From positions 28,770,001 through 28,834,000 of the forward strand of contig CM097885.1 in NCBI GenBank assembly GCA_044892525.1: 64,000 nucleotides of DNA. The letters run 5' to 3'. Positions 7,245 through 64,000 of the stretch are shown here, piece by piece. The stretch's first letter is position 1. The number at the start of each line of letters is the position of its first letter. Under the pieces are notes generated by a model. That model was not told the origin of the DNA. It was given only the letters and a program-made list of their open reading frames with translations, and did not search any database. The translations under genes were made by a program, and so were the position numbers. The stretch comes from Schmidtea polychroa (Eukaryota).

Positions 7245-8699
7245 TAATATATGATTAATATATGATTAATTCCTCAATTCTATTGAATGTTGACTGTGTT
7301 GAGAAAAAATTGAATTTAGACCCACATAGCAGTAATATGATCGAAATGCGTCGTCAAATTACATACAGACACAACACTAAGTAAAGTTAAAATAGAAACT
7401 TGTTAAATCACCAACTAAACACAAATTAAAGAACTGACATACCGTCAAAATGATAAAACACAAAAGTAAATTAAAACAAGACAAGAAGTGTTGAACGAAA
7501 CAAACTCCAACATAGCATAGATAAAGAACAGAAACTAAAAAAATGCGAATTATTGGCGATAAAAGAAAGTAGGAAAAAGAATGGAAAAGATTTCCAAAAA
7601 ATAGCATTAAAATGAATGATGAGTCAAAATTATAATAGAAATGATAAGAAATATCAGAATATTCTATGTAAATGGCGAAATCTATAATGGGCGCTACATA
7701 ACTAATTGAGGTTAAGTAAAATATAAAAATATAAAATTTAAATTACCACAAACTAAAATAAAACAACGTAAGAATTAAAAGAAATAGGAATTACATAATA
7801 AAATTTTTAAAGTAACATAGAATATTCTATAAACTGGCCAAATCCATCATGGCGACGAAATTTATTAAAATTAAATAGAATATAGTATAAAGTGAGTCCA
7901 TGTCAATCTCCTATCTTATAGTCGAAAATATTTTTATTAAATACATTATTCGCAGCAAAAGGTTTAAATTATCACTGAATTGTTTTAAATAAAATTTAAA
8001 AATCAGAAAATAAAATAAATCATAAATTATAAAAATTAGTCATCAAAATTGAAGAAATTAAAATTCAAAATTAATCAGAATTATAATAATTCAAATTTGT
8101 TTTATTGAATCAGTGTACGCACACATAATCGCACACCAAAATCAGACTATAAATACTGACACATTTCAGTCATAATCCAATGCTGATATTTTGGTTAGAC
8201 CAAGATTTTTCTGAATTTGGCCAACTTACGATCTTGTAATTGTAAGAACTTTATATCAACTTTATATATTATGCTTACGTATTATGAATTTTTGTTTTCT
8301 TTTGTTGTTATCAAAAGACGAATTCACTTTCACATGATGAAATCGCTAAACCTTTTCGGTCACAGCTTGCAAGATAGTAAACTATATGAGAACGTACCTT
8401 AACAAAGTATGACAACTAATTACATTAATAATCTAATTAATAATACCCTTATGCTGTCAAAGTACCACAACTATAGAGGGAAATGGTGGATGGAGACGAA
8501 AAGAAATATCTAGGGATTAGCCTCCTTACTAATTATACACTCAACTTGCAACTTATTTTTATTTCTGGGTATAAAACCATATTCTATTATCAATTTATCC
8601 TTATTGAAGCATATATTTTTAAATTTAAATTCTATTGTCTGTTTCCCGTAATTTTTCTTTAATCTTTCCTTTAAATCTTTTATGTAATCATCTACCTCG

Positions 8700-13894: not shown

Positions 13895-13898
13895 TAAC

Positions 13899-14157
13899 GA
13901 CAAACACTGAACACCATACAATCTATCGGTTTCAACGCAATATATCTAGATGGTATCTTTATCACAGCGAAGAGCAGAAAAGAAGCGGAAGAAATTATTT
14001 ATATATGTAATGCGACTCACCGAGATATTAAGTTTAAAATCAGATATCCAGAAGAAGATGGATCCCTCAATTTACTTAAAAAAATAAAAGTACATACTCA
14101 GAAAAACGGATTCTACAAAAAACTGCATACGAAGAGCTATTTATGTACCACAGATCA
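13899..14157 (+). mobile_element. Old fragment of PLE family 1 RT
   Basis: Diverged match to about 57411-57680 (e.g. GAAGAAGATGGATCCCTCAATTTA shared). Confidence 0.85.
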
Positions 14158-34576: not shown

Positions 34577-51423
<16,847 letters not shown>

Positions 51424-51579
51424 TAATAAATTTCCCAAATATGTAGGTTATTAATTTTATAGTAAATGAAATTATTCTTTTTTTCTATTAAATATTTGAA
51501 GTCTTTGAAGGAAATGGAACAAAATTGTTATATTTATCACAATAAAACACATTTACTTATAATTGAAAAATCGGTATAA

Positions 51580-51804
<225 letters not shown>

Positions 51805-53023
51805 ATAATTGTTGAAAAAAGCCTTTTACTGACTTGCTCAAACCCCATACAAAGGTATCTGCCTAAATGGAAGTAATTTGGTTCAAGCAAAGATTTGAAT
51901 AAGAAATTCTTCCTATTATATATCTAAGAGAATTAATAGAAAAGATAAAATTAACATAAAAACAGAACATAGTACATAAGGAATGCAAAATTTCAATATT
52001 CTTCCAAAATTCCATGACAGAACATCACTTTAAATTATGCGGAAAATGAAAATAAAACATCATAATAATAAATAATAATAATAACATGAACATTAACATT
52101 GCACTGATTTAAATTGTTTTCGACAGGCTCGAACTCATCATCAGGTAGGATAGAAAAAACCTATAAATACGGCTAATCAGCATTCTCCAAATTTTAAAAA
52201 CAAAGTTATTTTACATATAAATTTAACCATTCAATACATTTGAAAACAATGACAACCTACATACCTTCAATTTAACATCCAAACTATTTAAAAGCATTCA
52301 AAGCCAGAGTGTTCAGATATTGTTTGTATACACCCGCTTGCAGTGAACAAACGCATTCATAATATGGGTTGGTGTGTACAACCAATCATAGATGCGTCAC
52401 TATTTCTAATGAATGATTAAATTTCGGAATTAGGTGTAGTTAATTTAAGATTTACTATTTTAGCCGTTTTATAAATGTCTTTCAAGTAATTTTTTTTATT
52501 TAAAGGAAATTTTATGACTTGAATTTTGATCAATATATACTATATATTATATAGATATGAGATCATTATTCAAGCTCTTAAATATTACTTTTTATCAACA
52601 TTTTTTATTAAAATTTATCAATTTATATGTAGTGGTTGTTATGCTATACACAATGGAGATGCTGTCCTTTATTAGAGTACTCCAGTTCTTGAACATTTTC
52701 AATCATTATCAATCACCCAAATGAACGTACGTAATACGTAATATCGCCCGAACGCTACAAGCCGTATTCCGTATGTTCAGGTACAAAAAACTATATATTT
52801 TATTACAAATATTATTTGGTGACATCTAATATTGGAGCATCTGACTTGCAAAAAATACAAAAAAAAGTTCATATCTATCTATCTAATTGTAAGTATTTGT
52901 CTGGTATATTGTAAAGAAAGTAATGTTATTGCGAAATATAATAAAAAAACCCAATGTTTTTTTACCTACGTTTTGAATCATATCCCAAAGGTAGGGCGGT
53001 TAATCACAATAATGATTCTAAGC

Positions 53024-53214
53024 CAGGGGTTCTTAACCTTTTCAAACTTATGGACCCCATAAATATAAAATTGGTACCGACGGACCCCTGAAATGTTAAA
53101 AAATTAATAAATTGATAGTAAAACACATACATTTTTTAATAATTATTTATAAATCTGTTTATTCAGCTTCAAACAAAAATAATAGCTTTTTGTAAATAGT
53201 GCCGCGAACCACTG
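53024..53214. mobile_element. hAT (Charlie-type) MITE
   Basis: Ends CAGGGGTTC / GAACCACTG; exact 8-bp TSD TTCTAAGC. Confidence 0.9.
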
Positions 53215-54206
53215 TTCTAAGCAGATGATATGAGTAAAAACGATATACTTGATTTTAACATTTTATGAAAATAATTGAATAATTATTCAGAAAATGTGAT
53301 AATTGAAGCGTAGTTGATAAATTTATGTGCAAATTCTGTAAACTCGCTTTTTTTGCATTTTATTTTTTGCATCTATTTTTTAAATAATATTTTCATTATT
53401 TGGTTTTATTTCAAGAGTCAAACTGAGAAAGATTTTGAAATAATAGAGGATAAAATACTTTTCATGCGTTCATTGAACAGAAATAAAATAAATTCCAATC
53501 TCTGTCAAAGTTGACCTGGAAAGCAATTGTTAAAATTAATGAAATAGGATAAGAAACATTTTTGTAAAACTCTTGATACTGAGGGAAAGCAATTAACGAC
53601 TGTAAATAAGAAATAATTTTTAGATTAGAGAAATAATGGGAAATGTGGGTAACCTGATGCTTCATTAAAATAGATTTCAGGCGAAATTTCTTTCTGATTA
53701 TTTACAGTTTTTAAATAAAACAATTCCTTCGATTTTCTCAACTTATCTCGTGTCTCTGTAAATAATTATTCTAGTTGGTTATAATACAAGGATTTTGGAA
53801 ATAAATTTTTCGAATATAGAAAAATAACGTTTTATTATTAGAATACAATAATTAATAATTTCTCGCTTTCAATAAATCTTTTTGCACATAATATGTCGCA
53901 ATAATATTTTATAATAATTCATTTTTATGTCTATTTGAAGTTTAATTATTTTATTTAATTTAAATTATTTATTTAATTTAAATTAAAATCATTTGAATTA
54001 ATTAATTAATTAAATCAACTCTTTTTTTAAAACTTTTATAATTGTCTACATTTTAGGAAGAAATTAAACATCAATCGATAGAGAAAAATCAATTTACAAA
54101 TAATATTGAAATAAAAATATTACGTTGATTAAAATTAAAATTTTCCATGACCATCAATTATATATTAATAATCAAGAACTGTTAGGTCAAATTTATAAAA
54201 TTCGGT

Positions 54207-54256
<50 letters not shown>

Positions 54257-54261
<5 letters not shown>

Positions 54262-54470
54262 CACTAAAATGATAATTTAAGCCCTTTGCTGCAAATAATG
54301 TATTTAATGAAAGAATTTTCGACTATACGATAGTCCTTGTCAATGAGATTGACAAGGACTATCGTATAGTCGAAAATTCTTTCATTAAATACATTATTTG
54401 CAGCAAAAGGCTTAAATTATCATTTTAGTGTTTTAAATAATAAATGCTGCTACCAAGCAATCATCATTTT
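54257..54470. mobile_element. Non-coding palindromic mini-insertion of the PLE family 1 3' end, between (TAA)n tracts
   Basis: 88-bp arms 54257-54344 and 54348-54435 with a GAG loop and one mismatch, then the same 35-nt tail as at 58871-58905. Confidence 0.9.
54342..54386 (+). ncRNA. Minimal hammerhead ribozyme, U3-A8 core variant
   Basis: AATGAGA TTGACAA G GACTAT-CGT-ATAGTC GAAA ATTC TTTCATT; 7-bp stem I with one G-U; mirror copy on the minus strand (core 54337-54343) lacks stem I. Confidence 0.7.
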
Positions 54471-54540
54471 ATAATAATAATAATAATAATAATAAACAAT
54501 AAAATGATAATTTAAGCCTTTTGCTGCAAATAATGTATTT

Positions 54541-54583
54541 AATGAAAGAATTTTCGACTATAAGATAGTCCTTGTCAATCTCC
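54541..54583 (-). ncRNA. Minimal hammerhead ribozyme, U3-A8 variant, in the inverted duplicate
   Basis: Reverse complement of 58779-58821. Confidence 0.65.
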
Positions 54584-54974
54584 TGGAATTTAGCAATGTT
54601 CTTCCCCAAAATACCTTTCAATCTTTCTTTTATTTCCTTTCTCTTAATTCTCATTGGTTGTAAATATAATGAATTGTTTTACTAAAAACTTTTAAAATTT
54701 TTACATTTAAAATTTCAAAATGACATAAACTAAAAATTTTTAAATTTTTTACAGCTTCTATAATTAGCTTCTAGAAGCCTAATAAAATATTTGAATATAT
54801 TTTAAATAAAGCCTCCAATAACTACTTATATATGCTATTTAAATATTTCAATAAATGTGTCAATTTTGATTTTCAAACCCTATTTTTTAAAATTTTTTTA
54901 TATTATTCTAATTATTACTTTTTAATTTATTCTATTTTTTTAATTTCTTTATATATTGTCAGTTATTCTCAAAC

Positions 54975-56029
54975 TCAATGACAACAGATCAAATTCATGA
55001 TTTCATTGATTTCTTCTTTAGTGTTGATCTTTGGCTGTCTGTTTATGATGAGAATTGCTTCTTTGATTCTGACATTTTTCTTTTGGATGTTTCCATTAGC
55101 TATGATTTCTATTGAAATATTTTTTCTTTCTTCTGTTGGCTGACACTGCCGGAGATGTCTGCCCAACGAGGATGTTCCACCAGGATCTAGATGTTCTTTA
55201 ACTCTTTGGTGCAATGTCCTGAGGGTACTTCCAATGTAGATTTCATTGCATACATTGCACGTGATGCAATAGACGATGTTTTTTCTAAAGCACATATCTT
55301 TCGGTGTCTGGCAGTTTTTCATTGTGCAATTGTTTTCTCTATTTATGTTGCCTGCCAGAGCCCTTCTCAATGTCCAAGATTTATGTGCTATCCGAATTGG
55401 AAGACCGGTACGTTTAAGTTCTTTCAGGATCTTGAAGTCGAGTATGTCACTGATGAATGGGATATTCAGATAGAAATATTTCTGATTCTTTTGTGTTAAT
55501 TCCCTAGATCTTCTTGGGGTAGAATTCATTCTTTCAATGTCCTCACCTTGGTATCCGTTTCGGTGTAGGATTTTATTGAAATTTGATTGCTCTATAAAGT
55601 TTTCTTTTTCTCCGTGCATCGATTGGCTATTCTTCGTTTCTCGTTTCTTATGACATGTACTTTCTGTAAGTATGGAAGCGCTGATCTTTGGTGCATAAAT
55701 ATTTCTTTGCGAGCTGGTTTTCTGTAGAACCCGTATGTTGGAGTATTTTCTTCTATTTTGATTCTCAAATCCAATAAATTGAGGGATCCATCTTCTTCCG
55801 GATATTCGATTTCGAACTTAATATCTTGATGAGCCGCATTGAATGTATGAAATATTTCCTCCGCTTCTTTTTTGTTTTTGGTCGTGATGAAGATATCATC
55901 AACATATCTTGCATAGAAACCGATGGGTTGTATGGTCCTCAGTGTCTGTCGTTCGAGGTTATCCATAAAAATGATTGCTAGCAGTCCTGATATGCTAGAA
56001 CCCATAGGCAGACCTTTAACTTGTTTATA
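54975..56029 (-). pseudogene. Inverted partial RT plus GIY-YIG copy with a 1-nt frameshift near 55605
   Basis: Track ORFs 55592-56005 and 54975-55619 duplicate the C-terminal part of the 788-aa ORF. Confidence 0.93.
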
Positions 56030-58387
56030 AAGAGAAATAAAAACATCAAAGATTATATTTTAACAAATTTAATTAGAAGTATGTACGGAGAAACTCATCG
56101 AGAACAAAAGAATCAAGAAAACATTTTGAAAACGTATTTGAATAACCACCCAAAAGAATTGATCTACGAGGTACAAAGACAATCCTTCATGACAGCAGAA
56201 GCACATTATTCCTTGCGATTTGAAAAAAGAATCAAACACCTTTTGAGAAAAAAGGAGCTCAAAGCAGGCCTTGTTATGAACAATGAAACACTGGACGGAA
56301 ACGAAAGCATTACAGTGAACAAAGAACTAGTAACCGATCTCACAAATTGTCTATCCAAAGGTGAAAAAGGATTACTTTCACTAGGACCAAAGTTCAGTAT
56401 AAACAGAGAAATAGATGAAGCAGCCATCCTCAATTTCAAAACAGCTCTTTGTCGCATTGCGTACCAGATCAAATGGAACAATACAATACCGCATGAAAAT
56501 GAAAATAGCGAAAACCAGCTCCCAGTATACATAAACACAGATAAACTCTATCAACCAAATCCTGATGCAGAATTAGATTCAACACTCTCAAAGGTCTGTC
56601 ACAAAATCATGGAGATAGTTGAAAAGGAAAGAAGAAAACCATATCTCTCAAACCTAACGAAAGACGAAAAGGCAATATTAAAATCCCTTAAAAAGAAACC
56701 GTACGTTTACTTACCAAGTGACAAGGGGGGAGAATTTTGCATTATAGAGAAGAATCGTTACTGTGAAGCTGGTTACGAACACCTCGGCAACATCGAAACA
56801 TACAAGAAAGTCAGCCGCATGTCACCAAACACCATCGAAATGAAGATCAACAAAGTATGGAAAGCCATAACTTTGGAAATGAAGCTCAACAACAGAATAA
56901 CCAACAGCTTCGTCACAAAAAATTCTGATCTTCCTAACTTCTACCACCTAATTAAAACTCACAAAGAGGGTCCTGGTATCAAAATTAGACCTATAGTGTC
57001 CAACAAAAATGGACCAACAACTAAAACAAGTTGGCTCCTTGCAAAGATCTTGAAACCTTTATTAGACACGATACCACACCATCTTCAAAGCAGCGACTGC
57101 CTCATGACAAGACTAAATAATAACATGATTTGTCATAGAGAATTCCAATACCCATTTAGTCTTGATGTCGTATCACTATACACATCTATCGAACCAACAG
57201 AGGCTATTCAATGTTTAGAAAAGAAATTAAGAGAAAGCAACTTGTTAATAAAGGAAATGAATATCGAGAATATCACCAAACTACTTACTGTTATCCTCGA
57301 GAACACCTATTTTACCTTTGAACAAAATATCTATAAACAAGTTAAAGGTCTGCCTATGGGTTCTAGCATATCAGGACTGCTAGCAATCATCTTTATGGAT
57401 AACCTCGAACGACAGACACTGAGGACCATACAACCCATCGGTTTCTATGCAAGATATGTTGATGATATCTTCATCACGACCAAAAACAAAAAAGAAGCGG
57501 AGGAAATATTTCATACATTCAATGCGGCTCATCAAGATATTAAGTTCGAAATCGAATATCCGGAAGAAGATGGATCCCTCAATTTATTGGATTTGAGAAT
57601 CAAAATAGAAGAAAATACTCCAACATACGGGTTCTACAGAAAACCAGCTCGCAAAGAAATATTTATGCACCAAAGATCAGCGCTTCCATACTTACAGAAA
57701 GTACATGTCATAAGAAACGAGAAACGAAGAATAGCCAATCGATGCACGGAGAAAAAAGAAAACTTTATAGAGCAATCAAATTTCAATAAAATCCTACACC
57801 GAAACGGATACCAAGGTGAGGACATTGAAAGAATCAATTCTACTCCAAGAAGATCTAGGGAATTAACACAAAAGAATCAGAAATATTTCTATCTGAATAT
57901 CCCATTCATCAGTGACATACTCGACTTCAAGATCCTGAAAGAACTTAAACGTACCGGTCTTCCAATTCGGATAGCACATAAATCTTGGACATTGAGAAGG
58001 GCTCTGGCAGGCAACATAAATAGAGAAAACAATTGCACAATGAAAAACTGCCAGACACCGAAAGATATGTGCTTTAGAAAAAACATCGTCTATTGCATCA
58101 CGTGCAATGTATGCAATGAAATCTACATTGGAAGTACCCTCAGGACATTGCACCAAAGAGTTAAAGAACATCTAGATCCTGGTGGAACATCCTCGTTGGG
58201 CAGACATCTCCGGCAGTGTCAGCCAACAGAAGAAAGAAAAAATATTTCAATAGAAATCATAGCTAATGGAAACATCCAAAAGAAAAATGTCAGAATCAAA
58301 GAAGCAATTCTCATCATAAACAGACAGCCAAAGATCAACACTAAAGAAGAAATCAATGAAATCATGAATTTGATCTGTTGTCATTGA
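56021..58387 (+). CDS. PLE reverse transcriptase plus GIY-YIG endonuclease, N-terminally truncated
   Basis: PSDKGG, IKTHK..IRPIVS, SLDVVSLYTSI, GLPMGS, RYVDD, LLDL, YRKP, IVYCITC..C..IYIGST.R.L.QR.KEH. Confidence 0.95.
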   Translation: MFIKRNKNIKDYILTNLIRSMYGETHREQKNQENILKTYLNNHPKELIYEVQRQSFMTAEAHYSLRFEKRIKHLLRKKELKAGLVMNNETLDGNESITVNKELVTDLTNCLSKGEKGLLSLGPKFSINREIDEAAILNFKTALCRIAYQIKWNNTIPHENENSENQLPVYINTDKLYQPNPDAELDSTLSKVCHKIMEIVEKERRKPYLSNLTKDEKAILKSLKKKPYVYLPSDKGGEFCIIEKNRYCEAGYEHLGNIETYKKVSRMSPNTIEMKINKVWKAITLEMKLNNRITNSFVTKNSDLPNFYHLIKTHKEGPGIKIRPIVSNKNGPTTKTSWLLAKILKPLLDTIPHHLQSSDCLMTRLNNNMICHREFQYPFSLDVVSLYTSIEPTEAIQCLEKKLRESNLLIKEMNIENITKLLTVILENTYFTFEQNIYKQVKGLPMGSSISGLLAIIFMDNLERQTLRTIQPIGFYARYVDDIFITTKNKKEAEEIFHTFNAAHQDIKFEIEYPEEDGSLNLLDLRIKIEENTPTYGFYRKPARKEIFMHQRSALPYLQKVHVIRNEKRRIANRCTEKKENFIEQSNFNKILHRNGYQGEDIERINSTPRRSRELTQKNQKYFYLNIPFISDILDFKILKELKRTGLPIRIAHKSWTLRRALAGNINRENNCTMKNCQTPKDMCFRKNIVYCITCNVCNEIYIGSTLRTLHQRVKEHLDPGGTSSLGRHLRQCQPTEERKNISIEIIANGNIQKKNVRIKEAILIINRQPKINTKEEINEIMNLICCH

Positions 58388-58778
58388 GTTTGAGAATAAC
58401 TGACAATATATAAAGAAATTAAAAAAATAGAATAAATTAAAAAGTAATAATTAGAATAATATAAAAAAATTTTAAAAAATAGGGTTTGAAAATCAAAATT
58501 GACACATTTATTGAAATATTTAAATAGCATATATAAGTAGTTATTGGAGGCTTTATTTAAAATATTTTCAAATATTTTATTAGGCTTCTAGAAGCTAATT
58601 ATAGAAGCTGTAAAAAATTTAAAAATTTTTAGTTTATGTCATTTTGAAATTTTAAATGTAAAAATTTTAAAAGTTTTTAGTAAAACAATTCATTATATTT
58701 ACAACCAATGAGAATTAAGAGAAAGGAAATAAAAGAAAGATTGAAAGGTATTTTGGGGAAGAACATTGCTAAATTCCA

Positions 58779-58821
58779 GGAGATTGACAAGGACTATCTT
58801 ATAGTCGAAAATTCTTTCATT
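58779..58821 (+). ncRNA. Minimal hammerhead ribozyme, U3-A8 variant, in the PLE 3' region
   Basis: GAGA TTGACAA G GACTAT-CTT-ATAGTC GAAA ATTC TTTC; predicted cut after C58814; palindromic AATT stem III. Confidence 0.68.
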
Positions 58822-58909
58822 AAATACATTATTTGCAGCAAAAGGCTTAAATTATCATTTTATTGTTTTAAATAATAAATGCTGCTACCAAGCAATCATC
58901 ATTTTATAC

Positions 58910-59039
<130 letters not shown>

Positions 59040-60590
59040 CAAACATTCTTTTCACGATATATTTCGACAGTTTTCTTGTCATCATCAGGTAGGATATAAT
59101 AACTATATAAATTAAGGATTTTAAACAAATTTATAAATTTTATTAACTATATAAAAAACATTTTATTTAATAAAAACATTTCATTCTTTTTTTTAAAAAT
59201 TATAATGAAAATAATATTTTATTTTTCAAATTTTAACATTTTGAATTTAATTTAATAATTTAAAAATTTTTTTATTAATTATTTAATTTAACAAACAACA
59301 TCCAATATACAGCAAATTATTTAGAAACATTTAAAAACAAGTATTCAATGCATTCTGCACATTAATTTTTGGATTCAATGACTTTATCAACAACGCCTCA
59401 CAAATCACACGTTCCCAATAATTATCGAAATGTTTTAATAAAATTTTAAAATTAGACATACCTATTTTACTTTTACAGCCCTTATTGTGCTCAATAATAT
59501 TGGTCAAAACCTTCGATCTATAATGCTCTCGAGGTCGAATACAGAGATGACGGGAAGTCTCTTCAATGTATGTGGCATTACACCCATTACATGTAAATTG
59601 ATAAACGAGATCGGAATATAATTCGACCGCAGTGTTAGACTTATTAATAAACATATTGCGTACTTTCCATGAAGTTGACACTATCCTATAGTTTAAATTC
59701 CCTAACTGGTTTCTTATCTTCACTTTATAATCCTTAAAACCTTCTAAGTACGGCAATACTAACACAAATTTAAGCTTATCATTCTTGCTCACACTATTTA
59801 ATTTATTTAAATCATCAGACTCACACGCCTCAACAAAATCACACCCAGATTTTCTCAAACATGGATCTTTAGGATTTTTAATAAATTTGTCAACAGTCTC
59901 TTTTACCATAATTAATAAAAAGGATTTCGAATAACCGTTCTTCATTAACATTTCAACCAATTTGTCAACACTTTTTACTGAATTTACAAAAGTAGAAGAC
60001 AAAGATCTACGTTTTCAACCACTTCACCATATTTCTTTTATACTTGAATTCACAAAAACTTTCGGATGAAGTATAGAGACCAGTATCAGTTGGTTTTCTA
60101 TAAATCTCTGTCTCATAGTGTTTCTCTTTGCGTTGTATTAACAGATCCAAGAAAACAAGTGATGATTTTTTCTCCATTTCACTTTGAATACAATGTTTTA
60201 TGTAGACTATTCATACAATGCAAAAACGGATGAACATGCAAGAAATCATCAAAATATAAGAAAAACATCATGCAATTTTCTTTTCTAAGCATGCCAAAAC
60301 AATTGAAGCCATCGTTGGTGTGAGGCGTTTTAGCAATTTGTATTAAAATAATGGTGTGATATTGTGCATGTTTGATTGTATGTTGAAATCCTTACTTATA
60401 CATTAATTATTATTTTTTAGAAACTCCTCAAACAAATTAACGTTATATTTTGTTTTAATAGTTTTTGTATTTTGAATAATAAACGTGTTAGTATAATTTG
60501 TTATTATGGATTCGATTAATACCGTATCTCTGTGGCTAATAGTTGGTGCTAAAGGCGAACCCATAGCAACTCCATCTATTTGTTGATACC
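59040..60590 (-). mobile_element. Penelope-like retroelement, family 2, degenerate
   Basis: YQQIDGVAMGSPLAPT, FLDLLI, IYRKPTDTGLY, VLPYL, LVYQFTC.GC.ATYI.ETSRHL..R.REH; frameshifts and a short interruption near 60330-60535. Confidence 0.9.
59053..59091 (-). ncRNA. Minimal hammerhead ribozyme, canonical core
   Basis: Minus strand TAC CTGATGA T GACA-AGAAAAC-TGTC GAAA TATATC GTG; palindromic ATATAT stem III. Confidence 0.8.
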
Positions 60591-61188
60591 ATTGAATTAA
60601 CCGAATTGAACGAATAACAATTTTATTTGAAATAGACTCGATGGAGTCGGCTCTATGTGGCAACAAAATTTCACAGCATTGAATGATCTGTTCGAAATCA
60701 TAATTTACATAAACATCATCACTTAAGTCATAATCCGATTTCATAAAGTCTAAGTTTGATTTTATCACATCGCTCGTTATAGTAGAAGAAATTCTTCCTG
60801 TAGCCACAATGCATAAATATCTCGTTTCCTTTGCTAATTGAACTCCTGATGGATTGAGACTCGCAATATTGCGTAACTTGTAAATCATAGATCCGTCAAC
60901 ATCAACCATAGATGAGGCAATATATTGAATTTTGTTATCATCTAATAAATTCCAAAACAATTTTGTATTAGAAGGCATTTCTACAGAAGATTGTAGTAGA
61001 TTACATTTGACCACGAGGAGCGCAAACTCACAATTTGCTGTCCGATTATTTGACAATACAGAAGGGTAATTAATATTTGATGGAATTTTTCTTAAAAACA
61101 TCTCAAAATCTTCAGGATTGGCACAAATCTCAATTTTGCTATCAGAATCATCACTAAAATGATATTTCATCCATGAAATAAACGCCAT
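60403..61188 (-). CDS. Chimeric ORF: about 200 aa of unrecognised sequence fused in frame to a PLE RT motif
   Basis: 261-aa track ORF; only WYQQIDGVAMGSPLAPT is recognisable. Confidence 0.45.
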   Translation of the reverse strand: MAFISWMKYHFSDDSDSKIEICANPEDFEMFLRKIPSNINYPSVLSNNRTANCEFALLVVKCNLLQSSVEMPSNTKLFWNLLDDNKIQYIASSMVDVDGSMIYKLRNIASLNPSGVQLAKETRYLCIVATGRISSTITSDVIKSNLDFMKSDYDLSDDVYVNYDFEQIIQCCEILLPHRADSIESISNKIVIRSIRLIQWYQQIDGVAMGSPLAPTISHRDTVLIESIITNYTNTFIIQNTKTIKTKYNVNLFEEFLKNNN

Positions 61189-61334
61189 TTTAACAAAGGA
61201 ACTTGTTCCAGAACCGAAAGCCCTTTTTAAACTTCCACCAATAACAAACCAATTTAAAACAAATCAATTCGAATTAAAAATCCAGAATTTCTGCCAAAAA
61301 CCATTTATCATATAAAAAATTAACAATTAATCAA

Positions 61335-61513
61335 AACCTACTTCTCGCGTCTGTGTGCGCACACCAACAAGAATCGGTCTAACCAGACCGCGCACACAGA
61401 CGCGATAGAAAAAAGCCAAACCACACCCACAACTATATGCGTCTGTGTGCGCCCACAGCCAACAACACAAGTATAGTAAAAGGCGCACACAGACCCGAAC
61501 ATCGAATTAAACA
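61335..61513 (-). repeat. Start of the BEL/Pao 3' LTR, with four alternating GTCTGTGTGCGC motifs
   Basis: On the minus strand the polypurine tract AAGGGGGGAGGA is followed by TGT at 61513; distal LTR end not identified. Confidence 0.8.
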
Positions 61514-64000
61514 TCCTCCCCCCTTGACCCTTTGGTGTCAATCTCACATCCCCATTAACTTCTCCTTCTTTTGTGATCAAGCATAATTTAGATATGCACC
61601 TTAATACCTCCTTTCCTTCACATTTTATCCTCATCACGCGTAGCTTTCCGTCTTCTCCCGGTATCACTTCGATTACTCTCCACATTGGCCACTTCCCATA
61701 CTCATTCCTTTTGTCTAAAACCCACACTGTTGACCCTGTCTTGACATCATCTTCTATCTTATTCCATTTCGCCCTTTGCCGCCAACACGGGACCAATTCT
61801 TTCATCCATCGCCGCCAGAAGTGCTCGGTTAACTCCTGAATTCGTCTCCACCGAAACACCGTACATGACATTTTCTTCCCTTTATATTTTCCACAGCTTC
61901 TCCTTTCCAACCGGCAATTAATAAATGATTTGGAGTTAGCACAGCGTCTTCCTTACTGTCTACTGCCTGAACCACTAAGGGCCGAGAATTTATCAACATT
62001 TCAGCCCTTGTCAAAACATTTCCCAATTCTTCGTCGGTCACATCTGCACTTGTCAGTATGGCATTCATAGCTCGCTTTGCCGATTTGATCATGGACTCAA
62101 AAACTCCCCCAAAATGCGGTGCTGATGGAGGATTGAAGATCCAACTACATTGATGCTTCGACAACTCTCTTTGAGTTTTATAGTTGTCGATTACAAAATT
62201 CTTTACTGTAGAAGTGGCGCCTATGAAATTTGTGCCATTGTCTGAGATCATCAATTTTGGCATCCCCCGCCTCGCTGCAAACCTCATAAACGCTCGAATG
62301 AATGAGTCTGTGTCCAACCCATATGCCATTTCAATATGCACCGCCCGTGACTTTAAACATACGAATAGGCAAATGTACCTTTTATTTCTCACCTTTCCTC
62401 TGCCTACTTTAGTTTCAAACGGTCCTGCAAAATCTCCTGCCGAGTGAACCAAGGCTCTAAAAGGTTCTGAAACCCTGAACGCCGGTAACGGTGCCATTAT
62501 TTGACTCATTCCTTTAGCTTTTCTTTTTCTACACATTCCGCAATCTGTCTCACACTGTTTGATCATTACTTTGGCCTTCAAAATCCAATATTTTTCGTTC
62601 AACACACTTAAGACATGTTGAGTTCCTGCATAATGGCTCAAACTTTCATGGCAATCTTTGATGATTAGTCTGGTGACCCAACTCTTGTCCGATAGAATTA
62701 TTGGATATTTTGTCTCCCATGGTAAATTCTTTGCATGAATTATGCGGCTATTACTTCGTAACACAGTCATCTCATCTAAAACTGGTGTCAACTTTAACAA
62801 ACGGCTTCTGATATCTACCCTTTCATTCTTGATAAGTCGTGCCAGGTCCTCAGAGAAAAACTTCGCCTGCTCTCCTTTAATTACATTGAGTTCCATTCTT
62901 TTAAGCTCCTCAGTTGTAAGTTGTCCTGTGGTTCTTTGGGACTGTGTCGTTCTCGTGTTCAAAATAAATCGCTCCACCCAGGCCCGCACCCTGATCAATC
63001 TCTGCCATGAGGAAAAGGTTTCTACTTTGAAACAGTCCGTGTTCCCTATTCGTCTTTGCCCCTCTACACACGCCATCATTGTTATTCCCTTTCGCAACTC
63101 CTTTGTTACACTGGATTGGTTTAACTCCGTCGCTGGCCAATTTCTAGTAGAAATTTCGGTCCCTCCCACCACATGGTGCTGTTTATCAAATCCGATGCCG
63201 ATAATCCTCTTGTGATCAAATCCGATGGATTTTCACTTGTTGGAACATAATGCCATTGCCCAGGTTTGGTCATTTCTTGAATGAACCCAATTCGATTAGC
63301 TACGAATGGCTTGAATAGTCTCGAATAATTTCGAACCCAATGTATTACGTCTTTACTATCGGACCAGAACCATATCTCACTCATCGGTTTCCCGAGCACT
63401 TCTGAAACCCGTCTTGCTAATTTAACTCCAGTACACGCGGCCATTAATTCCAACCTTGGTATACTTATAATTTGCACTGGAGCTACCTTTGCCCTTGACG
63501 CAATTAACACACTTTTAGGTCCCACCATAGTTTCTTCCCGTAGATATATAGCTGACCCATATGCGGTGCTTGACGCATCGGAGAAGACATGTAATTGCCA
63601 TTCATTTTTCATTTGAGTCCTTAAACATCTCGCAATTCGCAGATCTCCGAGATTATTTGTGTCCTCTACCCACTTGTGTATTTCTTTATTCAACTTTGGA
63701 GGTAGCTTTTCGTCCCAATCAAGCCCTGACAACCACAACTTCTGAATAATCTTTTTCCCTATGATTATGAATGGGCCTAACAGTCCCAATGGATCAAAGA
63801 TTCTTGCCACTATGCTCAATACCTTTCTTTTCGATAAACATTCCTCATTCGGCAGATCTACTTGAAAACTAAATTCATCGTCTTCCGAGTACCATTTCAA
63901 ACCTAGGGTCTTGACGGCCATTGTCGTTTCCTTTTCAATATTCAGTGTTTTAGCTCGTTCTTCAATTGGGATTGTTGCCATAATTCTTTCCGAGTTGGAC
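61514..64000 (-). mobile_element. BEL/Pao LTR retrotransposon pol (RT end, RNase H, integrase, C-terminal domain), two frameshifts, runs off the window
   Basis: KTLGLKW, IFDPLG, LHVFSDASSTAYG, IPRLEL, ENPSDLITRG, H..G..C..C, DFAGP, SDNGTNF, PHFGGVFE, LTPNHLL, FWRRW.KE. Confidence 0.95.

Follow-up and report, generated by a model that had tools for sequence, protein, structure and literature searches.

A U3-A8 hammerhead motif in the terminal repeat of a Penelope-like retrotransposon of Schmidtea polychroa, with a substitution hot spot beside its predicted cut site

Introduction

Do the hammerhead ribozymes of Penelope-like elements (PLEs) cut in vivo, and what for? The question is raised by a 64,000-nucleotide stretch of the Schmidtea polychroa genome (GenBank assembly GCA_044892525.1, contig CM097885.1, positions 28,770,001 to 28,834,000; hereafter the window). 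A preliminary description of this stretch had reported four copies of a hammerhead in which the core pair C3-G8 is replaced by U3-A8, carried by a Penelope-like family. Penelope hammerheads are slow in vitro, and cut RNA ends were not found in Anolis.

Our analysis indicates that the motif is probably a minimal type I hammerhead with a U3-A8 core, placed in a Penelope-like terminal repeat, with a predicted weak cut after position 58814 that would likely be aided by dimerisation or by the protein of the element. The family offers two natural versions, with C or U at position 17 (C17 and U17), which are unlike in their predicted folds and in a 50-fold substitution hot spot, acquired per insertion, next to the predicted cut. 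Together with a sharp marker of RNA 5' ends in the same family, they make the question of cutting in vivo testable. The hammerhead numbering and the NUH rule used below are established knowledge.

The four window copies are arms of two insertions of one element

Both strands of the window were searched with the pattern TTGACAAG-N-GAAAATTC, using 100 shuffles as a control. The window contained exactly 4 matches (54313-54343 (-), 54349-54379 (+), 54548-54578 (-) and 58784-58814 (+)) and the shuffles contained 0; all four copies reported before were located, at coordinates that agree. The stem II loop reads CGT in the copies at 54313-54343 and 54349-54379 and CTT in those at 54548-54578 and 58784-58814, and the 6-bp stem II is the same in all four. 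The preliminary description had used this loop change as evidence for the fold. The difference and the identical stem stand, but the loop is unpaired and its change says nothing of pairing: CGT versus CTT is a subfamily difference without covariation. The four copies had also been taken to add to the evidence, which they do not: they are the arms, at 96-99.7% identity, of two inverted insertions that belong to a single transposon, and therefore count as one motif. A fifth copy, missed before, is a core-less remnant of the U3-A8 element family at 7911-7992 (+), in which the equivalent of 58813 is A.

The host is a Penelope-like retrotransposon

We refer to the two insertions as large (arms 54494-56029 (-) and 56030-58912 (+)) and small (54257-54472). 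Both are nested in (AAT)n tracts. In the following list, RT stands for reverse transcriptase or reverse transcription, UTR for untranslated region and LTR for long terminal repeat.

54209..54259: (AAT)n target tract, left
54257..54472: small insertion; its inverted arm spans 54257-54344 and corresponds to 58783-58870, and its direct arm starts at 54345
54494..56029 (-): tail-less inverted arm of the large insertion, corresponding to 57332-58868
56030..58912 (+): direct arm of the large insertion, a 5'-truncated PLE with 3' UTR/pseudo-LTR and tail
56030..58387 (+): RT and GIY-YIG reading frame, open, with about 71 first codons of the tandem copy L064 missing
58879..58912 (+): beginning of the next tandem unit, with its start codon (58879) and first codons, in the optional tail between two 3'-end clusters
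58910..59040: (AAT)n target tract, right

The host of the motif is a high-copy Penelope-like retrotransposon and the hammerhead lies in its terminal repeat. The frame at 55991-58387 matched RVT_1 (E 2.9e-14) and GIY-YIG (E 5e-05; 24 bits against a cut-off of 22.6), which bears out the Penelope-like host proposed before. It was also matched at E <=1e-40 by 158 of 7,999 scored proteins, the best of them 41-44% identical. The element has the single open reading frame (ORF) of an endonuclease-positive (EN+) PLE, with RT plus a C-terminal GIY-YIG domain, and the corresponding layout of partial tandems, an inverted 5'-truncated arm and a one-sided tail of 30-40 nt; inverted, one-tailed insertions are known for PLEs (PMC8557442). 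By eye only, the cysteine (Cys) linker before GIY-YIG resembles the PNL2_SM row of a published alignment.

In the large insertion, the inverted arm matches 57332-58868 at 99.7% identity and has a one-base frameshift near 55600. The last 35-40 nt of the element are carried by the direct arms only; that of the small insertion, from 54345, corresponds to 58780 onward and carries the tail. In the tandem copy L064, the motif region is followed by the in-line start of the RT/GIY-YIG frame, and the hammerhead lies between the ORF stop and the next ORF start, which is the pseudo-LTR position. An in-line upstream element end was counted by eye at 11 of 30 ORF-start loci, and a 19-nt anchor just 3' of the motif has 4,152 genomic matches. 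A non-LTR retrozyme, described as non-coding tandem repeats of 150-450 bp with a canonical type I hammerhead (10.64898/2026.07.22.740005), was rejected as the host, the copies being dispersed ends of a coding element. A dense pile of short direct and inverted element ends, inserted into each other's AAT tails, was seen at L064:3296-10000. More degraded PLE fragments lie in the window at 13896-14157 and 43265-43504 (76% DNA identity; weak protein match).

Anatomy and predicted folding of the hammerhead

The four copies differ in their completeness:

58780..58818 (+): intact minimal type I hammerhead, with stem I 58780-83/58815-18, AAUU 58810-13 and C17 at 58814
54544..54582 (-): intact copy, identical to the preceding one, from the large insertion's inverted arm
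54345..54383 (+): hammerhead with CGT loop, at the extreme 5' terminus of the small insertion's direct arm
54309..54343 (-): hammerhead with CGT loop, without the 5' strand of stem I, in the small insertion's inverted arm

In the copy at 58780..58818, the core boxes are UUGACAA and GAAA, with a Watson-Crick 3-8 pair (U3 at 58784, A8 at 58789, A9 at 58790, G12 at 58807), as expected of a hammerhead. G58791 is unpaired and the 6-bp stem II is formed by 58792-97/58801-06. The palindromic 15.1-16.1 segment AAUU is followed by C17, completing an NUH triplet. Stem I has 4 bp in three window copies and is absent from the copy at 54343(-). Several earlier claims are upheld by this anatomy: a minimal hammerhead with a palindromic stem III (AAUU, bulge and short stem I are all present), predicted cuts after C17 at 58814 and 54379, and invisibility to a search for CUGANGA. 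The suggestion that all four copies could cut is not supported, as the copy at 54343(-) has no 5' strand of stem I and the two small-insertion hammerheads are predicted to pair with each other in an 88-bp hairpin (-131.5 kcal/mol). These two copies are probably dead.

Fold prediction separated the two natural versions. For the C17 monomer, a slipped, inactive stem I that buries the predicted cut site had a probability of 0.51, against 0.11 for the active register. For the U17 version, the slipped form fell to 0.009, and the active register (0.30) was accompanied by a register shifted by one base (0.29), which would make 58813 the cleavage base.

The 3-8 pair covaries in homologous elements

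Homologous elements were sampled as 43 loci from metagenomes, belonging to other organisms. In 6 of them, the ORF match has a hammerhead-shaped motif close by on its 3' side and in the same orientation, and 3 further loci have an inverted copy. C3-G8, a bulge of one base and a palindrome of 4 nt are common to all nine motifs; two additional hits look unrelated. An alignment of 13 rows was built from 7 homologous loci, 2 copies of a second, canonical family present in the same genome as the window, 3 diverged relatives with U3-A8, and the copy from the window. At pair 3-8, 9 rows have C-G and 4 have U-A, and no row breaks the pair. G10.1-C11.1 is found in 13/13 rows and an A-U outer palindrome pair in 12/13. 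Overall, 89.9% of 138 cells are paired, against 63% in shuffles and 30-47% in slid controls, a value inflated by the picking of rows with a hammerhead-shape filter; two rows with a 6-nt palindrome are misaligned at stem I, where pairing is thereby lowered to 80%.

The proposal that C3-G8 had covaried to U3-A8 was therefore borne out, as homologous elements share the same fold with C3-G8, and by comparison of these sequences U3-A8 is a true covariant of C3-G8. The catalytic core and the 3-8 pair are conserved across elements that are about 40% identical in protein. Catalysis by the U3-A8 hammerhead is likely, by homology. Older U3-A8 relatives with other stem II sequences, containing consistent G-U and compensatory changes, were observed at L208:1020, L209:1013 and L034:1501.

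Short genomic copies begin at a sharp wall upstream of the predicted cut

The 5' ends of copies were read in the first 91 non-cluster matches of the anchor, 90 after identical contexts had been merged; the sample left out 9 rows of one segmental cluster. Ends fell at 58778-85 in 34/90 copies (8 exactly at 58778), at 58786-800 in 20/90 (54/90 overall within 58778-58800) and at 58801-11 in 5/90, and 28/90 copies extended far upstream. No copy of the 90 ended at 58749-58777, which defines one further feature:

58778..58785 (+): sharp 5' wall of short copies, putative 5' end of the element RNA

Stalling at a helix would stop RT before the helix is crossed, and the wall at 58778 is therefore best read as an RNA 5' end. 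The ribozyme is thus likely to sit at the element RNA's 5' end. Contigs of run X10 contained head-to-tail joints returning to 58778-83, possibly from the same DNA. The 3' ends formed two clusters around the start codon (114/259 and 131/259 copies), and AAT/ATT repeats followed 200/259 of them.

One scheme would accommodate these ends. RNA from tandem source copies would start at about 58778, with the ribozyme as the first 41 nt of a 101-nt 5' UTR and with the predicted cut preceding the start codon by 64 nt. Reverse transcription would begin at two sites around the start codon, running off the RNA 5' end in short copies and far back through read-through RNA in long ones. The window copies would be passive products, none of them having an upstream repeat to drive it in sense. 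Most short copies read through the cut site; cutting is therefore not needed for insertion, and most templates were uncut or rejoined.

A run-off hot spot at the cut was rejected: 3/90 copies ended there and targeted listings yielded only scattered cases, several of which are explained by 2-nt microhomology. One chimeric insertion (L155:2040-2480) joins the first ~75 bases of the ORF exactly to 58815, the predicted cut site. It is present in ten copies, within five segmental duplicates, in one 0.3-Mb cluster (G000:C1 15.61-15.93 Mb), and therefore represents one event; a satellite or circular-RNA family starting at the cut was rejected on the same ground. In a single case, L287 (G000:C1:238363408-238363468), the core, stem II and AAUUC are cleanly deleted between the stem I strands, as if RT had skipped the folded ribozyme, with 2-nt microhomology.

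Just before stem I, window positions 58765-58780 resemble a branch point and 3' splice site, a likeness to Penelope of Drosophila virilis. An intron or trans-splicing ending at 58779 was not supported: the short copies share no upstream exon, and no spliced form was seen.

A substitution hot spot at position 16.1

58813 (+): position 16.1, unchanged in the window copy and substituted in 45% of U17-subfamily copies genome-wide

Copies with identical 30-nt flanks were counted across the genome, with 58815 in the same T run as control. In the U17 subfamily, 58813 was A, C or G in 700 of 1,545 copies and T in 845; the control was A, C or G in 14/859 (45% versus 1.6%, odds ratio 50). By eye, the first 100 substituted copies listed comprised ~51 A, 35 C and 14 G; the C variant may alternatively be a C17 that slipped by one base. 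In an unbiased sample of 82 in-register copies, 58813 was A, C or G in 10, always together with T at 58814, and other sites were substituted at ~1% on average. T at 58814 marks the older subfamily with the CTT loop (background 4%). Among unselected copies, 58813 varied in 15/47 with U17, against 3/70 with the CGT loop and 0/21 with CTT/C17. The second, canonical hammerhead family (3,397 pattern matches) had a 16.1 change in 1/25, and a general scar at all hammerheads was rejected. The literature listings searched contained no earlier account of a comparable hot spot among copies of PLEs.

Comparison of the two arms of single insertions indicated when the change arises. Among 35 arm pairs in which an arm has T17, 32 have unlike junctions. 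A substitution at 58813 is present in 13 of the 21 pairs that are in register and is never shared between the two arms, while the subfamily marker 58858 agrees in 29/35. The frequency is flat with age (13/40, 14/36, 7/19). Both the arm-pair and the age sets include loci chosen for their junction. Inheritance of the base with the subfamily was rejected, as the arms of one insertion disagree. The disagreement of the arms and the flat frequency indicate, therefore, that the change arises per arm, at about the time of insertion. A weak link of A at 58813 to marker 58834 (p 0.011) hints at some inheritance.

What the fold and the hot spot may record

One possible, though doubtful, explanation of the hot spot is that U17 RNA is frequently cut in vivo and then rejoined abnormally or bridged by RT, leaving a near-random base at 16.1. 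Tentatively, thousands of copies would then record cleavage in vivo, with about half of U17 templates cut and a random base set in each new copy. The excess over 58815, the position beside the cut, the three-way spectrum, the independence of the arms and the flat frequency with age all favour such a scar, as do the predicted avoidance by U17 of the slipped fold that dominates C17 and the chimera joined exactly to 58815. Precedents are found in RT errors at viroid hammerhead ligation sites (PMC3185496) and in R2 junctions (PMC3774820). However, the young C17 subfamilies and the second hammerhead family are barely affected, and the variable base does not coincide with the cleavage nucleotide but lies next to it, one position away, unless stem I moves by one. 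It is also difficult to see how a nick that frees a 36-nt fragment could be bridged almost every time. The selected loci in the arm-pair and age sets, the weak link to 58834 and the chimera being one event copied ten times also count against it, and the U17 subfamily is the only one with a U6 run. This restriction to an uninterrupted U6 run would fit another explanation, which we regard as unlikely: the fold is kept as a signal for protein binding or dimerisation and does not cut, and the hot spot is an RT error at A4-U6 or at a modified uridine. The absence of a run-off peak at the cut site agrees with it, as do the insertion of PLEs with dead ribozymes in vitro and the lack of RNA ends found at the cut in Anolis (both PMC11167929). 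Yet simple slippage predicts A/T swaps at the edge of the run, not C or G at the second T, and 58815-17 are clean in the same T run. The conservation of the core and the 3-8 pair at ~40% protein identity suggests selection for catalysis.

It is very improbable that the motif is a microRNA precursor or a hairpin formed by chance in AT-rich DNA. Weak microRNA-type Rfam matches occur at 54305-54387, and no hammerhead family was matched at E up to 5 in window 50000-64000; but the former score well short of the gathering thresholds and follow the hairpin made by the inversion. The canonical hammerhead at 59088(-) likewise goes undetected by Rfam, so that U3-A8 is not the reason for the miss. In the genome, a relaxed U3-A8 pattern is matched 10,635 times and its reversed control 1,678 times, and conservation of the fold at the same place in homologous elements refutes a chance origin.

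Several observations weigh against a minimal U3-A8 hammerhead that cuts. The monomer is no more stable than shuffles (z -0.59), its C17 version is predicted to favour the slipped, inactive stem I, and the AAUU dimer helix alone is predicted at +0.3 kcal/mol. There is no enrichment of 5' ends at the cut site (58812-17; one of the three copies is doubtful), and we infer the RNA start near 58778 from DNA alone. The four U-A rows of the alignment are related sequences from one genome, in which the 3-8 switch may be a single event. With rows chosen by shape and U-A rows that are kin, the alignment therefore shows homology and one switch, not many.

If the hot spot is indeed a scar of cutting, the family would provide genome-encoded evidence that a minimal Penelope hammerhead of this type works in an animal, and the later change to C17 would have turned it down. 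Ribozyme activity could then be traced across genomes through scars of this kind.

Comparison with known systems

The U3-A8 variant has already been published, contrary to the novelty or rarity implied by the preliminary description, and the window element adds another host family. Minimal hammerheads with U3-A8 are listed, with ~1,300 matches, for the Cercyon PLEs of Schistosoma (Sm3, Sm4; Cervera and De la Pena 2014, PMC4209133), the sole match of our literature search for U3-A8 hammerheads; their monomers did not cut and dimers did so poorly. Natural U3-A8 hammerheads had also been reported, with in vitro activity cited (PMC3088659). The window element shares with Cercyon the U3-A8 pair, the unpaired base between 9 and 10.1 that forms the bulge, G10.1-C11.1, a long stem II, a short stem I of 4 bp, a palindromic 15-16 segment without loop III, and its place in the pseudo-LTR of a flatworm element. 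Sequence and host differ, and the window family consists of thousands of near-identical young copies with an AAUU palindrome. The hypervariable 16.1 of one of its subfamilies has no description that we found in the accessible literature.

The Poseidon element PAc from Anolis (Frangieh et al. 2024, PMC11167929) has a hammerhead that needs protein in order to cut and that insertion in vitro can do without. The likeness extends to a hammerhead near the ORF start, ATT-rich targets, two internal RT start sites that define the tail, and uncut RNA as the main substrate. Unlike the window element, PAc carries C3-G8, and its cut falls 26 nt past the start codon, whereas the cut predicted here lies 64 nt before it, and the window protein has a Cys linker before GIY-YIG. 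The Nematis-type PNL2_SM (Craig et al. 2021 Fig. S2, PMC8557442) resembles the element in its C-terminal GIY-YIG with CCHH, DKG motif, short Cys-rich linker, inverted 5'-truncated arm and one-sided tail. The linker of the window element is C-x4-C-x6-C, and its clade placement was made by eye only.

Viroid ligation sites (Flores et al. 2009, PMC3185496) and the ribozyme-shaped 5' junctions of R2 (PMC3774820) resemble the hot spot in that variation beside a cut is made anew at each copying. There it takes the form of a deletion after the cut or of junction variation at the element end, whereas the window family has a substitution that preserves length and lies inside the copy, one base ahead of the cleavage nucleotide.

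Neighbouring features of the window

A canonical C3-G8 minimal hammerhead of the second PLE family lies at 59053-59091 (-), where it faces the U3-A8 element across the same (AAT)n tract. It belongs to a Perere-like remnant at 59331-60014 (-), which matches the Perere_Smed row of a published alignment (PMC8557442), and a decayed hammerhead copy is found at 52118-52168. An open frame at 50359-51423 (+) encodes a rhodopsin-family G-protein-coupled receptor and is flanked by inverted (GATA)n/(TATC)n arrays. The integrase remnant of an LTR retrotransposon at 61338-63616 (-) is presumably BEL/Pao-like, judging by its motifs. An imperfect inverted repeat at 52508-52584 has a weak microRNA-precursor score.

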